Assembly: GCA_963733835.1 (NCBI GenBank)
Contig: CAVTER010000004.1
Location: forward strand, 43,102-107,101
Direction: 5' to 3'
DNA from: an uncultured Spirochaetota bacterium
GTDB taxonomy: Bacteria > Spirochaetota > Spirochaetia > SZUA-6 > Fen-1364
DNA: 64,000 nt
Shown: positions 26,310 through 35,587 of the stretch, one piece after another
Layout: each line of letters opens with the position of its first letter
Position numbering within the stretch: the stretch's first letter is position 1
The notes under the pieces: model-generated
Database searches by the model: none
What the model was told of the DNA's origin: nothing
The model's input: only the letters and a program-made list of their open reading frames with translations
Made by a program: the position numbers and the translations under genes

Positions 26310-27446
26310 TCAGTACACGAACGCCGCGCCGGCGAGGAAGGAGAGCCCGCCGCGGCGGTTCGACGCCCAGCTGTCGGTGTCGTCGCCGAGTGCGACGCTG
26401 GCCATCGCAACAAGGGAGAGCCCGGTGTGCAGGCTCACGCTCACGCCGGGCACGATCACCGCGCTGCCGTCCACCGGCGAGACCAGCGCGCGGGCGCTCA
26501 CCGTGACGCGGGAGTCGACGGCAAGGGAGGCCTCCGGGTACAGCAGCAGGCCGTAGACAGGTGCCGGAGGAAATGGGGCATCCGATTCCTGCCACTCGCC
26601 CGCGGGGGCACAGAGGGCCTCCATGCGAAGCGACAGTGTCGCGCGCGGGCCGAGGCGCTGGAGGTGAAACACACCGGCGCTCAGGCGAAGGGTGTCCTGC
26701 AGGTCCTCCAGGCGCGGGGAGGTGGAGGGGACGGCCGTGCCTGCCGACAGGTGCCAGTCGACGAACAGGTTTCCCTGGAGCGAGACCGCGGCCTGGTGCA
26801 TCCCCGTCTCCCCCCGGTAGAGGTAGTCCGCCTCCACCTTGGTGCCCGCCAGCCTGCCGACAAGCCGCCCGCCCGCGGCGGCCGAGGTCACGTCGGGAAG
26901 AGGGGAAGAGGGGTTGGCGATGAACGCCGCCACGTCGATGCCCGGCGGCAGCGCCACCGCCTCGGCAAAGCTGAACCTGCCCAGGGGCACGTACAGCGCG
27001 GCAAGCCACGAGGAGTCATCGCGCAGCACGTCTCCTGTCAGGTCGAGGCCTGCCGCGGAGGAGCTGCCGTACAGGAGGTCAGCGGCGTTGAACGCCACGC
27101 CCTCTCCCCAGGAGAGCCGGGCCTTCCCGAGGGTGAGCCGCACGCCGGACGGCGCATCGCCGCCGGGGAATCGCACGGCGACGAGGGCCCGGGCGATCGA
27201 CGCGGAGACGCCTTCGCCCAGGAGACCGTCCAGGGCGAGCTCGGCCTTCACGTTCTCCGACTGGGAGGACAGGCTGACACGGGCGGTCCCGAGGGAGAAG
27301 AAGGCCCAGTCCGACGATGCCTCTCGCGTGAGAGTCTCGAGCACGCGGAGCCGCACGCCGAGGTCGACGTCGGCTGCCGCGGAGACGGCCGCTGCCAGGC
27401 CGGCGCAGGCCGCGAGGAGCGCACGGGCCGCGCGGCGGCCTACCAC
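26310..27446 (-). CDS. Outer-membrane beta-barrel protein (hypothetical) with signal peptide
   Basis: A 378-aa ORF with an Ala-rich signal peptide, alternating amphipathic beta-strand pattern and a C-terminal F-V-Y outer-membrane insertion motif. It is the last gene of the minus-strand operon. Confidence 0.6.
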   Translation of the reverse strand: MVGRRAARALLAACAGLAAAVSAAADVDLGVRLRVLETLTREASSDWAFFSLGTARVSLSSQSENVKAELALDGLLGEGVSASIARALVAVRFPGGDAPSGVRLTLGKARLSWGEGVAFNAADLLYGSSSAAGLDLTGDVLRDDSSWLAALYVPLGRFSFAEAVALPPGIDVAAFIANPSSPLPDVTSAAAGGRLVGRLAGTKVEADYLYRGETGMHQAAVSLQGNLFVDWHLSAGTAVPSTSPRLEDLQDTLRLSAGVFHLQRLGPRATLSLRMEALCAPAGEWQESDAPFPPAPVYGLLLYPEASLAVDSRVTVSARALVSPVDGSAVIVPGVSVSLHTGLSLVAMASVALGDDTDSWASNRRGGLSFLAGAAFVY

Positions 27447-28243
27447 GTCAACCTCTCCAGGGAGAAGAGCGCGGGGTCGAGGGCGAGGCCGATCGCGATG
27501 TCCTCGACGACGAACTCGGTCACTGAGCCCTTCTTCAGCTTGTCTTCAAGAACGACGCGCATCGGGATCGTGCGCCCGCTCACCTGGCGGAAGCCGGACA
27601 TGCGCGACTCCTTGAGCAGCCGACCCGAGAGCGAGAACTGCTGCATCCTGCGGGGGCTCCACGCCTGCGGGTCGATCCAGGCCAGTTGCCGGGGGTAGGC
27701 CACGTTCCTGCCCCTTGCTTTCATGGCGATGCGCCAGCAGTCGACCCCGTCCACCGCCTCGCTGCCCTCCAGGGTCACCTCGTACAGCTCGAGGATGTTC
27801 CGTCCCCCGGTCAGGTCTTCGTAGGACATGTCGGAGCCGAGGACAGCGTCGCGGAAGGCGGCGCCCTGCAGCCGGATCAGCTCCTCGGCCCCGGGGTAGA
27901 AGAGGTAGATCTCGTCGCGGGTGCGCAGGATCTTCTGGCCCTTCTCCTCGGCGCTGGTGAACTCGATGAGCGCATCGCCGGCTCCGCGGCTGTACGAGAG
28001 GAAGGTGGTGACCCGGGTGCCGAACCTGTCGGTCACCGTCATCCTGCCCCGCGTGCGCGAGGTGTCGTACACCTGGTTGGCCTGCATCCTGCGCACGATA
28101 TCCTCGGCGCTCCTGGCGCCCTCGGCGCTCCTGGCGCCCTCGGCGCTCCTGGCGTCCTGGGCGCAGGCGGCAGCCGCTGCCAGGGCCAGGAGCGCGGCCG
28201 CAAAGGCGGGGCGTGTCCATAGACGCATGGGAACCTCCCTCAT
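27440..28243 (-). CDS. LolA-like / outer-membrane lipoprotein-sorting-protein-family periplasmic protein, with a 3x tandem AEGARS repeat after the signal peptide
   Basis: MRLWTRPAFAAALLALAAAAACAQDARSAEGARSAEGARSAEDIV... and a LolA-like beta-barrel region (GRMTVTD...IEFTSAEEKGQKILRTRDEIYLFYPG). Its start overlaps the stop of the upstream permease (ATGA). Confidence 0.6.
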   Translation of the reverse strand: MREVPMRLWTRPAFAAALLALAAAAACAQDARSAEGARSAEGARSAEDIVRRMQANQVYDTSRTRGRMTVTDRFGTRVTTFLSYSRGAGDALIEFTSAEEKGQKILRTRDEIYLFYPGAEELIRLQGAAFRDAVLGSDMSYEDLTGGRNILELYEVTLEGSEAVDGVDCWRIAMKARGRNVAYPRQLAWIDPQAWSPRRMQQFSLSGRLLKESRMSGFRQVSGRTIPMRVVLEDKLKKGSVTEFVVEDIAIGLALDPALFSLERLTW

Positions 28244-32579: not shown

Positions 32580-32972
32580 CTACCGCTCCAGCTCCCGCAG
32601 GGACCGGACCAGCTCGGGGATTCCCACGCCGTACGCGCCGGCCTGTGCGACGAAGCTCCGCGTCAGCTCGGCGAGCACCTGCTCGCGCTGCACCTCCGAC
32701 ATTTCCACTTTCCTGTCGCTCACGAAGGTGCCGCTGCCCTGCTGCGTCGTGACGATGCCGCGGATCTCGAGCTGGCTGTACGCCTTGGCGACGGTGTTCG
32801 GGTTGATGCTCAGCTCGACGGCGAGGCTGCGCACCGTGGGCAGCCGGTCGCCCTGCGAGAGCCTGCCGTCGGCGATGGCCATTTCCACCTGCAGGATGAT
32901 CTGCTTGTACAGCGGCACGCCGTTGCGTGCATCGAGTGAGAACTTGAACTCCCTCCGGTCCAGCGCCGCCAT
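32580..32972 (-). CDS. GntR-family transcriptional regulator, short YtrA-like subtype
   Basis: MAALDRREFKFSLDARNGVPLYKQIILQVEMAIADGRLSQGDRLPTVRSLAVELSINPNTVAKAYSQL is a GntR HTH. The effector domain is short (about 60 aa), typical of YtrA-type regulators of ABC operons. It is the first gene of the operon. Confidence 0.75.
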   Translation of the reverse strand: MAALDRREFKFSLDARNGVPLYKQIILQVEMAIADGRLSQGDRLPTVRSLAVELSINPNTVAKAYSQLEIRGIVTTQQGSGTFVSDRKVEMSEVQREQVLAELTRSFVAQAGAYGVGIPELVRSLRELER

Positions 32973-33105
32973 GCAGGCTCCCTTCGGCTGACTATTGTAC
33001 CAATGTAATAATACAACAGGAGAATAGTACACTCGCCCGTGTGTGTCAAGCGGTATGACCGGATCCGCGATCGAAGTCGATCCCCGGATGGGCTATACTG
33101 TGGGA

Positions 33106-34068
33106 ATGAATCACAGGCTCCTCCCTGCCCTCGTCCTGGTGCTGGCCGCCGCCGGCCTCGCCGCCCAGCAGCAGGTGCGCGTCTCGACCGAGCGCCAGCT
33201 TCCTGCCGCGCTGCGCTCCAATACCACGGTGACACTGGCGGCCGGAAAGTACCTGACCAGCGAGGTGAGCCAGAGCTCGAACCCCGCCGTGAGCTGGGAG
33301 GAGAGCTTCGACGGCCGACAGCTCGTTGTCACGGGGGTGAGCGGGCTCACACTGAAGGCCGCGCAGGGGGCGGCACGGGGTGCCACGCTGCTCGCCGAGC
33401 CGCGCTACTCCTACACCATCGTGTTCCGCCGGTGCAGGGACCTGCGCCTGGAGGGGCTGACCCTCGGGCACACCGAGGCGGGTGAGTGCGAGGGAGGCGT
33501 GCTGCGGTTCGAGGGCTGCGCGAACGTGCAGATCCAGGACTGCGACATGTTCGGAAGCGGCGTGGTCGGACTGGACCTTGAGAAGTGCGCGGGTGTCACG
33601 GTGCTCGGCTCGACAATCCGCGACTGCAGCGCGGGGGCACTGTGGGCGGTGGGTGTGCAGGACCTGCGTCTCGAGAACGTGCGCATCGCCGGCAACGAGG
33701 GGTGGCCCCTGGTCTGGGTGGAAGAGTCGCGAAACCTCGTCTTCGATTCCTGCCTCATCGAGGAGAGCACGGGCGAGGGCCTCTTCTGGATCGACGGGAA
33801 ATCCCAGGGGGTTTCGCTTCCCCGCACGACGATCCGGAACAACCAGACGGAGAGTCTCCTGTCCGACGACAGCGCCGAGCCCGACTTTTCGAACACGGCC
33901 TTCCTCGAGAACGACTTCGAGCAGGAGGAGGCAGACGAGCTGGACTGCGACTGCGAGGACGGCTCCGACCAGGCCTACGAGGAGGGCTACGACGAGGGCT
34001 ACCAGGAGGGCTACGAGCTGGGGTACGAGGAAGGCTACACCGACGCCCTTTCCGAGGGAGGCGACTGA
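33106..34068 (+). CDS. Secreted right-handed parallel beta-helix repeat protein with an acidic C-terminal (E/D-G-Y) repeat tail
   Basis: A signal peptide (MNHRLLPALVLVLAAAGLAAQ) is followed by beta-helix-like repeats (LRFEGCANVQIQDC, VGLDLEKCAGVTVLGSTIRDC, LRLENVRIAGN). The tail reads DELDCDCEDGSDQAYEEGYDEGYQEGYELGYEEGYTDALSEGGD. Confidence 0.6.
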   Translation: MNHRLLPALVLVLAAAGLAAQQQVRVSTERQLPAALRSNTTVTLAAGKYLTSEVSQSSNPAVSWEESFDGRQLVVTGVSGLTLKAAQGAARGATLLAEPRYSYTIVFRRCRDLRLEGLTLGHTEAGECEGGVLRFEGCANVQIQDCDMFGSGVVGLDLEKCAGVTVLGSTIRDCSAGALWAVGVQDLRLENVRIAGNEGWPLVWVEESRNLVFDSCLIEESTGEGLFWIDGKSQGVSLPRTTIRNNQTESLLSDDSAEPDFSNTAFLENDFEQEEADELDCDCEDGSDQAYEEGYDEGYQEGYELGYEEGYTDALSEGGD

Positions 34069-34072
34069 GCGC

Positions 34073-35278
34073 TCAGGCCTTCTTCAGCATCTCCTCCAGC
34101 AGGAGGTGGCAGTACAGGAGCTGGCGCGGAATGTGGAACGGGCCCTTCCACATGTTGCCCTTCAGGTCGTGCGACACGGTGCCGTCCCTGTGCAGGTAGC
34201 CGAACCACTCGCCGTACTGCCTGGTCGGGGAACCTGTCCATCGACCACGACAGTATCTTCTCGAACCAGCGCTCCCACTTCGGGTCTCCGGTGAGGTCGT
34301 AGGCGAGCAGCGCCGCATAGATGGCCTCGTTGTGCGGCCAGAACAGCTTCATGTCCCACTCGTACTGCACGGGCTGCCTGCCCTCGATGTCGACGAAGTA
34401 GAGGATGCCGCCGTACTTCGGGTCCCACCCCAGGTCGAGCGACCACTCGAGGATGGGCAGCGCCTTGTCGACAAGGGCCCTGTCGTTCCTCTGCTTCCCC
34501 TCTGCCATGATGAACCACGCCGTCTCGATCGCGTGGCCCGGGTTCACGCACCGGCCCTCGGGAGAGTCGCCCAGGTACTCGCCGTTCGGCCCCACGGTTT
34601 CCAGGAGAGCCTTCTTCTCGGGCTTCACGAAGAGGCGGAAGACCTCGTCGATCTGCGTGTCGATCATCGCGTCGTAGGGGAGGGGCGAGGCGGTGGTGTC
34701 GGCCCGGCGCATCACCTGCAGCGTGTTGATCTGGATCATCGACATGGAGTGCCCGCGCATGGGCCTCGTCTCCTGGAAGACCTTCGGCTCGAGAGACCCG
34801 GGGCCGGCCATTTCTTCGCGGCGGTCTCCTGGACGAAGCGCATGAGCGACCTGGCCTTCTCGAGGGACCGTGCGTCGCCGGCAGCCCTGCCGTACTCGGC
34901 GAAGGCCATGATCGCGAAGATCTCGGCGAAGAGGTAGCGGCGCTTGCGCAGCGGCCTGCCGTCGCGCGTGACCGAGTAGAAGACCCTGCCGTCCGTGTCG
35001 AAGCCGTGCGCCAGGATGAAGTCGATCGCGTGCTTCGACAGGGCCAGCCACTCCTCGCGCTTTTCCAGGTCGTTGTACAGGCGCGCGAGGGTCCACCCGA
35101 TCCTTCCCTCGACCCACATCGGCTTGTCGGAGCAGAGGATCTCGCCCTTCCTGTCCAGGAACGTCGTGAATCCTCCGTGCTGCCGGTCGGTGGCATGGCT
35201 GATCCAGAACGGGATGACGTTGTCCACCAGCTCGCTGCGGAACATGTCGCTCAGCTGCTTCATGCGGCGCTTTGTCAT
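34073..35278 (-). CDS. N-acylglucosamine 2-epimerase (AGE) / cellobiose-2-epimerase-family protein, 2 frameshifts
   Basis: The fragments 34736..35299 (MTKRRMKQLSDMFRSELVDNVIPFWISHATDRQHGGF), a middle frame (...AIETAWFIMAEGKQRNDRALVDKA...ILYFVDIEGRQPVQYEWDMKLFWPHNEAIYA) and 34073..34318 (FGYLHRDGTVSHDLKGNMWKGPFHIPR) join into an AGE-family (alpha/alpha)6 barrel protein. Confidence 0.7.
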
Positions 35279-35410
35279 GGGACCCTCCCGAACAGGCATC
35301 GATCGTGGAACCAGGGACGTACGATCGTCGAATCGTACCGTACCCGATGCATCCTGTCAACGAAGCACGCGGAAAATGGGCCCATTCGGAGAAATCTTCA
35401 CAAAAGCCTT

Positions 35411-35439
35411 GACGCCGGTACCGGGCCATAGTAGAATCG
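35411..35439 (+). promoter_or_regulatory. Sigma70-like promoter of the sugar ABC operon
   Basis: TTGACG-17 nt-TAGAAT, with a 10-bp palindrome CCGGTACCGG inside the spacer. It lies 150 nt upstream of the SBP start. Confidence 0.45.
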
Positions 35440-35587
35440 GCCAAAAGTCAGCGCTCACCGCGCCATGGGAAGACAGCCGAGAGCGGAAGGAGGTGGTTTC
35501 GTGTTCGTCCGCCAGCCCCCTTGAAGTTCCCGCCCCTGCACCGTTTTCCTCCATATCCACGAAAAGAACATGAGAAGGAGTGAGTCA

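Follow-up and report, generated by a model that had tools for sequence, protein, structure and literature searches.

What a putatively exported beta-helix protein does with a long acidic tail of glycine and tyrosine repeats, and whether the operon lying head to head with its gene has any part in this, is the question raised by positions 33106 to 34068 (plus strand) of the window, the whole 64 kb stretch of DNA analysed here. An earlier note on this DNA had taken the tail for a bacterial oddity suggestive of metal or mineral binding or of a sorting tag, and had proposed a functional link to the divergent operon. The ORF itself is a genuine gene. It runs from an ATG at 33106 to a stop codon at 34066-34068 and encodes 320 residues, with a GC3 of 0.87 in a window of 69% GC and with the codon-position GC pattern of the window's genes, and 32 homologues were found in a collection of 5.8 billion proteins, the best at 80% identity. 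The database copy (P0001) has 337 residues from a start further upstream; the majority of homologues start at the Met chosen here. At the other end the last six residues, LSEGGD, and the stop codon (34048 to 34068, plus strand) close the reading frame, a terminal GD or GE being common to several homologues, and the stop lies 4 bp from that of a convergent GlcNAc 2-epimerase-like gene. An assembly or frameshift artefact as the source of the tail can be ruled out, since homologues assembled independently (JGI, ENA, Logan) have the tail too.

The N-terminus MNHRLLPALVLVLAAAGLAA (residues 1-20, 33106 to 33165, plus strand), followed by QQQ, reads as a signal peptide, having a basic n-region, a 16-residue hydrophobic core and a c-region of small residues, and the A20-Q21 pair is almost invariant across 22 homologues. 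A low-confidence helix is modelled at residues 6-16 and the first beta-strand begins at residue 22. Putative cleavage by signal peptidase I would fall between A20 and Q21, and no lipobox Cys was found in the N-terminus, so read from its sequence the protein is a candidate for Sec export in a non-lipidated and probably periplasmic form.

The body (residues 21-270, 33166 to 33915, plus strand) is by fold prediction a right-handed parallel beta-helix of the PbH1/CASH type, as family motifs, Pfam and the structural model indicate. Pfam Beta_helix (PF13229) matches residues 133-265 with 48.4 bits against a cut-off of 25.9 (E=1e-12), and the core carries the motifs P99-R100-Y101, G121-H122-T123-x2-G-x-C128-x-G-G-V132, G150-S151-G152 and C174. 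An AlphaFold2 model built on a 28-sequence alignment has short strands throughout and a pLDDT above 90 over most of residues 20-270. The three-stranded right-handed coil architecture of PbH1 proteins is present. ORF, N-terminus, Pfam match and model thus agree with the earlier reading of a signal-peptide protein with a parallel beta-helix, and structure prediction, proposed then as a check, returns a confident body and a tail with a pLDDT below 50.

The repeats of the helix had also been described as each ending in Cys, and here the regular placement of Cys held up and its position at the end of each repeat did not. The coils are 23-28 residues long and six of the seven core Cys (110, 128, 138, 146, 161, 174 and 216) fall at three recurring coil positions, the first occupied by C110/C138/C161 and then V184/S207, the second by C146/S169/V192/C216 and the third by S151/C174 and then N197/S221/N246, which on reading the sequence is the site of a classical Asn ladder. 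The Cys pattern thus exists, as part of the internal stacking that is usual in beta-helices, and does not mark repeat ends. A metal or catalytic cluster of His122, Cys128, Cys151 and Cys174 was rejected as a firm reading, because residues 151, 174, 197, 221 and 246 lie one coil apart and so build the helix's turn ladder. The residue at 151 is Ser in the Spirochaetota clade and Cys in most of the wider family. H122 and C128 sit in an enlarged turn loop immediately above the ladder, and they and the ladder residues may be structural.

Attempts to give the body an enzymatic name met with likeness at the level of the fold. Whether queried with the whole protein or the family profile, the PDB yielded weak repeat-level matches only, and the sequence matches to AlgE4 and AlgE6 reached no better than E=0.08-0.5. 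Active sites of GH28 enzymes are marked by the motifs NTD, DD, GHG and RIK, and none of these is present in the target core, the only DD standing at 254; Pfam Glyco_hydro_28 does not match the target and gives 14.1 bits against a cut-off of 22.9 in the homologue P0002. The JGI label of polygalacturonase on some homologues is therefore unsupported, the GH28 signature motifs being missing. Alginate and mannuronan C5-epimerases (AlgG/AlgE) have the catalytic motif DPHD, which the target lacks, and that identity was likewise rejected, the likeness being one of fold alone. Pectate and alginate lyases of the PL families are marked by an Arg/Lys catalytic base and, on the PB1 face, acidic residues that bind Ca2+; no CAZy-type Pfam family, lyase families included, matched the target, and its fold match to lyases is generic. 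NosD (PF05048) scores 20.8 bits against a cut-off of 23.6, so below threshold, and stands at threshold in P0002 and P0010; a nosZ/nosF/nosY neighbourhood is absent around the target, with no nos or metal-homeostasis genes nearby.

The beta-helix unit itself is large in number and widely spread. An exhaustive profile search of 1.84 billion cluster representatives returned 5,245 of them at E<=0.001, of which 1,722 reach E<=1e-30, and every one of the 148 top representatives fetched has two to four tandem copies of a unit of about 250 residues. An N-terminal BlaR1-type Peptidase_M56 domain precedes the copies in 45 of these 148, and many of the remainder start with a lipoprotein-type signal (25 N-termini were read); M56 and lipoprotein-type N-termini together place the unit outside the cytoplasm. 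When one genome per species was scanned, relatives of 53-64% identity came solely from uncultured Spirochaetota bins and those of 27-42% mainly from Oscillospiraceae and other Clostridia, Sporobacter termitidis DSM 10068 included, and in 19 of those loci an ORF for a BlaI/MecI-type repressor lies beside the beta-helix gene, mostly directly upstream of an M56-beta-helix fusion. Across 358 domain copies the most conserved residues are W64, D69-G70, P99-R100-Y101, G121-H122, C128, V132, G150-C/S151-G152, G155 and C174. No curated family beyond the generic Beta_helix covers the unit, and cluster look-ups gave no informative names. The unit is thus a large, widespread and uncharacterised extracytoplasmic family; the target, from a diderm, has a single copy and is of the non-lipidated kind. 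That BlaR1-type transducers of gut Firmicutes have an outer domain from a large unannotated family is possibly the by-product of wider use.

The tail was correctly described as some 70 residues of acidic D/E-G-Y repeats with a CDCEDG motif. Residues 251-320 hold 27 Asp/Glu and no Lys/Arg, a net charge of -27, and contain an acidic linker, FEQEEADELDCDCEDGSDQ (residues 271-289, 33916 to 33972, plus strand), with a CxC motif at C281 and C283, and after it the glycine repeat AYEEGYDEGYQEGYELGYEEGYTDA (residues 290-314, 33973 to 34047, plus strand), recognised from translation, Pfam and the tandem repeat in the DNA, which has the form AxxxG(xxxG)4xxxA. Gly at 294/298/302/306/310 and Tyr at 291/295/299/303/307/311 keep a strict period of four; within AYEEGYDEGYQEGYELGYEEGYTDA a Tyr follows each Gly, a Glu usually precedes it, and Ala bounds the segment four residues out on both sides. 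The tail was shuffled 200,000 times, and no shuffle was as periodic. At the DNA level a 12-nt unit is repeated in tandem 7.1 times with 73% matches (33954-34038), and a six-frame scan of the 64 kb found the tail repeat nowhere else in the window. The tail has no His or Met, no hydrophobic stretch and no basic cluster. Tail and linker are without secondary structure in the full-length model, at a pLDDT below 50, and the isolated tail folded without an alignment gives a single predicted helix over residues 287-317 at a mean pLDDT of 64, rising to 70 and 73 for the two ten-residue blocks that cover residues 291-310 (the other four models have means of 48-51). A type I secretion or RTX substrate was discarded as an identity, the period being four with an xEGY unit and not that of GGxGxD nonapeptides, and an N-terminal signal-like sequence being present.

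Such a repeat has precedents. Trost and Moore (2009) described AxxxG(xxxG)mxxxA in FliH and YscL, with a repeat number that depends on the species, and proposed that it serves helix-helix dimerisation; in the FliH repeats Tyr or Phe make up more than 45% of position x1, and Glu, Gln or Ala about two-thirds of x3 (PMC2674601). Paul et al. (2015) found that the Yae1-Lto1 complex no longer forms when Gly residues of the Lto1 GX3 motif are changed to Ala, and noted the same motif in FliH (PMC4523923). Pfam Yae1_N (PF09811) matches the tail at residues 284-312 with 31.6 bits against a gathering cut-off of 27.5; among the homologues all scores are below the cut-off, with P0010 borderline at 27.3 and others at 15.9, 14.4 and 13.7. 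Five NCBIfam FliH models match the tail too, each in the repeat region only and the best with 31.9 against a cut-off of 180. By its sequence the tail is thus a recognisable GX3 repeat of the FliH/Yae1 type and not unprecedented, and the view of it as an oddity gives way before the Yae1_N score, the FliH repeat pattern and the acidic GYxxGY repeats of unrelated metagenome proteins.

Among relatives only a small clade of uncultured Spirochaetota has the tail. A survey of 186 fetched proteins and of all ORFs called in 83 comparison loci, for at least three GYxx units (GY, GF or GW), found these only in the seven closest Spirochaetota homologues, in which the repeat number varies from 4 to 7, much as FliH repeats vary in number, and in one unrelated 63-residue membrane-anchored protein, which has GYEEGY..EEGYTDALS in common with the target and is 66% identical over 58% of the tail query. 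In homologues of 43-57% identity the tails are shorter and rich in Glu/Tyr but lack the Gly period, and distant relatives have no tail; in the wider clade tails run to 10-70 residues and differ in pattern (EYEEEYDE, YYDEDYDE). A CxC before the repeat is present in about five of the nine nearest relatives (P0002, P0003, P0004, P0007 and P0008, not P0005, P0006 or P0010). A word-indexed search with the tail alone gave 23 candidates and one match, and as it missed the parent protein, presumably through composition filtering, it is no gauge of how frequent such tails are. A scan of metagenomes for a (GYxx)4 pattern found about a dozen informative cases of period four, the rest being mostly (GY)n tails of proteins of about 800 residues. 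The informative cases include more small proteins, either exported, lipoproteins or anchored in the membrane, whose GY repeats keep a period of four, some of the repeats being acidic (for example L153, CYEEGYDEGYDEGYEMGYASA). Since its repeat number varies, distant relatives are tailless and period-4 GY repeats exist elsewhere, the tail is a recently added repeat of a known type whose size can change, and other exported proteins have repeats like it.

The neighbourhood had been described roughly as it is. The divergent upstream operon starts with a GntR/YtrA-type regulator (32580 to 32972, minus strand; Pfam GntR, E=8e-20) and continues with an SPFH gene, an ABC ATPase, two FtsX/MacB permeases, a TP_0789-like (LolA-like) gene and a 378-residue ORF, which ends in an aromatic residue and is a possible outer-membrane protein. 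The minus-strand ORF at 27546-28220 is in the wrong frame to be the LolA-like gene, and tblastn places the TP_0789-like gene at about 27608-28042. Downstream and convergent are the GlcNAc 2-epimerase-like gene, split over three frames, and then a sugar ABC transporter and a ROK regulator. The AT-rich intergenic region has an imperfect inverted repeat (32991 to 33028; 17-nt arms, 71% complementary) that overlaps the -10 element of a minus-strand promoter-like site (33049-33021) and is plausibly, from its sequence and place, a candidate YtrA/GntR operator of the regulator's own operon. No plus-strand promoter consensus for the target gene was found in this region. The same gene blocks are found on the contig of a 65%-identical homologue (L001), there with an AraC-type gene between the target and GntR, and with a PIN toxin pair and DUF2461 between the target and the epimerase. 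Elsewhere the target homologue is preceded by a toxin-antitoxin pair and a lipoprotein gene (L005), or its gene context is unrelated (L003, L004/L007, L006 and L008). Since the head-to-head arrangement recurs solely in L001, and with an extra gene, the proposed functional link to the YtrA-ABC-LolA-OMP operon is unsupported, and the target is tied to that operon by proximity in two genomes alone.

The explanation favoured here, as a tentative best guess that we put a little short of even, is that of an exported beta-helix unit with an acquired polyanionic GX3 tail acting by helix-helix association. The body would be one copy of the extracytoplasmic PbH1/CASH unit and would most likely bind or modify a glycan or cell-envelope polymer, to judge from the fold and the company that the unit keeps. 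A small clade of uncultured Spirochaetota would have acquired a polyanionic C-terminal extension with an AxxxG(xxxG)mxxxA core, which on association may fold into an amphipathic helix with a Gly stripe that allows close helix-helix packing. Through such pairing the beta-helix domain would form dimers or bind a partner protein that has a similar repeat. A pairing role was put forward for FliH, and mutations have demonstrated it for Yae1-Lto1, and it is because the repeats of Yae1-Lto1 are needed for complex formation that an association module is the best guess for the tail. The helix modelled for the isolated tail spans exactly the repeat, and its residue preferences match the FliH statistics; from these and the fold we infer helix formation and self-association of the tail and glycan binding by the body. 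No partner with a similar repeat was found in the 64-kb window or in related loci. The family as a whole can do without the GX3 geometry, since homologues of 43-57% identity lack the Gly period and distant ones have no tail, and the Yae1_N match, in which the target alone passes the threshold, could be compositional convergence.

The main rival to helix association, possible but on the less probable side, is that the tail is a disordered polyanionic low-complexity extension, made and resized by slippage of the 12-nt repeat, with a generic role in solubility, in electrostatic repulsion from the anionic envelope or in loose binding of Ca2+/Mg2+; with an origin in slippage the GX3 periodicity would be a by-product of the repeat unit and no packing motif. 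The 7.1 tandem copies, the 4 to 7 copies among close homologues beside the differing 10-70 residue tails of the wider clade, the unstructured low-pLDDT tail of the full-length model and the charge of -27 with no basic residue would all follow. However, every unit has its Gly and Tyr although the DNA copies are only 73% alike, which points to selection on the pattern of amino acids, and the preferences for Tyr at x1 and Glu at x3 recur in FliH repeats, an unrelated protein has the identical eight-residue end EEGYTDAL, and the isolated tail is modelled as a helix.

Metal or mineral binding, in which the CxC and the carboxylates would bind Cu, Zn or Ca and possibly feed or regulate the body in distant analogy with NosD, seems improbable. 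To the 27 carboxylates in 70 residues, the CxC in an acidic context kept in five homologues and the weak NosD similarity of the body must be opposed the three homologues that keep the GY repeat without a CxC, the NosD score below gathering with no nos or metal-homeostasis genes at hand, a tail that offers neither His nor Met, and the equal likelihood that a periplasmic CxC pair is oxidised. Very improbable indeed is a sorting or secretion tag read by the adjoining YtrA-regulated ABC/FtsX/LolA-like/OMP machinery, so that the protein would come to lie in the outer membrane or outside it, even though the genes stand head to head in the window and, with the AraC-type gene inserted, in L001, and have in common an intergenic region with a candidate operator. 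That adjacency is lost in the other loci (L005, L003, L004/L007, L006 and L008), and most family members have no tail or a replaced one. No NCBIfam or Pfam model of a C-terminal sorting signal (PEP-CTERM, GlyGly-CTERM, LPXTG, T9SS CTD) matches the tail, which has no hydrophobic helix or basic cluster either, and the suggested search for other carriers of the EGY tail found no second tailed protein, whether in the 64-kb window or in the ORF calls of the 83 comparison loci. Systems of the LolCDE/MacB type act on lipoproteins or small substrates, whereas the target is without a lipobox.

If the tail does mediate association by helix pairing, GX3 repeats would function in the periplasm as well as in the cytoplasm, and the tail would be a simple handle on how they pair, because no solved structure of such a repeat, nor any meaningful match, was found when the PDB was searched by sequence with the tail. 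A wider reading, which we hold to be rather unlikely, is that the GX3 repeat, so far described in cytoplasmic proteins only, is also a portable extracytoplasmic helix-pairing module for which small membrane-anchored proteins are possible docking partners, and that the beta-helix unit is a new and widespread ligand-sensing ectodomain, given that many BlaI/BlaR1(M56)-type signalling pairs of gut Clostridia have it as their extracellular part. The finding is a modest one, in that an odd low-complexity tail gains a name and a testable mechanism, GX3 helix pairing, and the suggested link to an export operon is removed. What is new is a mildly unusual combination of a beta-helix protein with a known repeat type and no new kind of system.

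Set against known systems, the body is only 10-17% identical to the carbohydrate-active beta-helix proteins (alginate lyase 6KFN, AlgE4/AlgG, PL1/PL6/PL9 lyases, GH28) and to NosD, and its family has conserved motifs of its own, PRY and GHTxxGxCxGGV. Nearer to it are the clostridial tandem lipoproteins and BlaR1(M56) fusions, which like the target are extracytoplasmic and have the unit of about 250 residues (27-40% identity) with the invariant G-H, Cys and Gly positions, and unlike the target have two to four copies, lipoprotein or M56 N-termini, Cys at 151 and no acidic GY tail. For the tail, FliH/YscL (SctL) offers the same AxxxG(xxxG)m pattern (m=4 here) with Tyr at x1, Glu at x3, a variable repeat number and a predicted helix. 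FliH is however cytoplasmic and has its repeat N-terminal to the FliI-binding domain, whereas in the target the repeat is C-terminal on a beta-helix protein with a signal peptide, and the target tail is far more acidic and lacks the Arg/Lys common in FliH. Full membership of the FliH/YscL family was rejected, as only the repeat region aligns, and far below cut-off, and a signal sequence is present. No Lto1-like partner or Rli1 context was found for the target, and its resemblance to Yae1 is one of motif only. Yae1 and Lto1 are eukaryotic cytosolic adaptors of Fe-S assembly with ten GX3 units and the target is a bacterial, putatively exported protein with six A/G-X3 units, and what they share is a Yae1_N match above the gathering score and a repeat in which Gly recurs with a period of four among aromatic and acidic residues.

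Between the exported beta-helix gene (33106-34068, plus strand) and the divergent gene of the GntR/YtrA-type regulator (32580-32972, minus strand), an AT-rich island in the 69% GC window holds an imperfect inverted repeat with 17-nt arms (32991-33028). This repeat overlaps the -10 of a strong promoter-like site on the minus strand (33021-33049, TTGACA-17-TATTCT) and is a candidate autoregulatory operator for YtrA. Further along the operon that YtrA heads, tblastn places the TP_0789-like (LolA-like) gene at about 27608-28042 (minus strand; 73% identity to the product on L001, the contig of the 65%-identical syntenic homologue) and not at the ORF suggested by a mechanical ORF listing. The next ORF (26310-27446, minus strand, 378 aa) has a signal-like N-terminus and the C-terminus AAFVY, gave no match in Pfam and may be an outer-membrane barrel. 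On the other side, the convergent GlcNAc 2-epimerase-like gene (34073-35299, minus strand) is broken over three reading frames, its pieces falling in the ORFs 34736-35299 and 34073-34318 and in part of the ORF 34035-35444, and is either a pseudogene or split by indel errors from long-read assembly; many gene calls on L001 are likewise fragmented.

Period-4 GY repeats like those of the target's acidic tail also occur on small membrane-anchored, signal-peptide or lipoprotein ORFs (the 63-aa protein P0186, and ORFs at loci L153, of 177 aa, L170, L111 and L194), with GYEEGY...EEGYTDALS common to P0186 and the target tail. Possibly these are independent extracytoplasmic uses of the repeat, or else docking partners. 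Many metagenome proteins of about 800 aa (loci L088, L095, L102, L113, L124, L132, L139, L146 and others) have at their C-terminus a long (GY)n run and, after it, basic or acidic residues; they are unrelated to the target yet swamp any GY pattern scan. These tails are probably the tyrosine clusters found at the C-terminus of Wzc-type polysaccharide co-polymerase/tyrosine kinases.

Two target paralogues (57% and 53% identity) are present in the single Spirochaetota bin MFD05674.bin.2.117 (a MAG; loci L006 and L007), in differing genomic contexts. Among gut Clostridia, Oscillospiraceae included, the beta-helix unit is found as two to three tandem copies behind an N-terminal BlaR1-type M56 domain (loci L015, L017, L019, L020, L028, L036, L038, L042, L047 and others; proteins P0034 and P0058), a fusion seen in 45 of the 148 best cluster representatives. 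At 19 loci the beta-helix gene has an ORF for a BlaI/MecI-type repressor beside it, mostly directly upstream of an M56-beta-helix fusion. In this form the unit looks like an uncharacterised family of sensor ectodomains.
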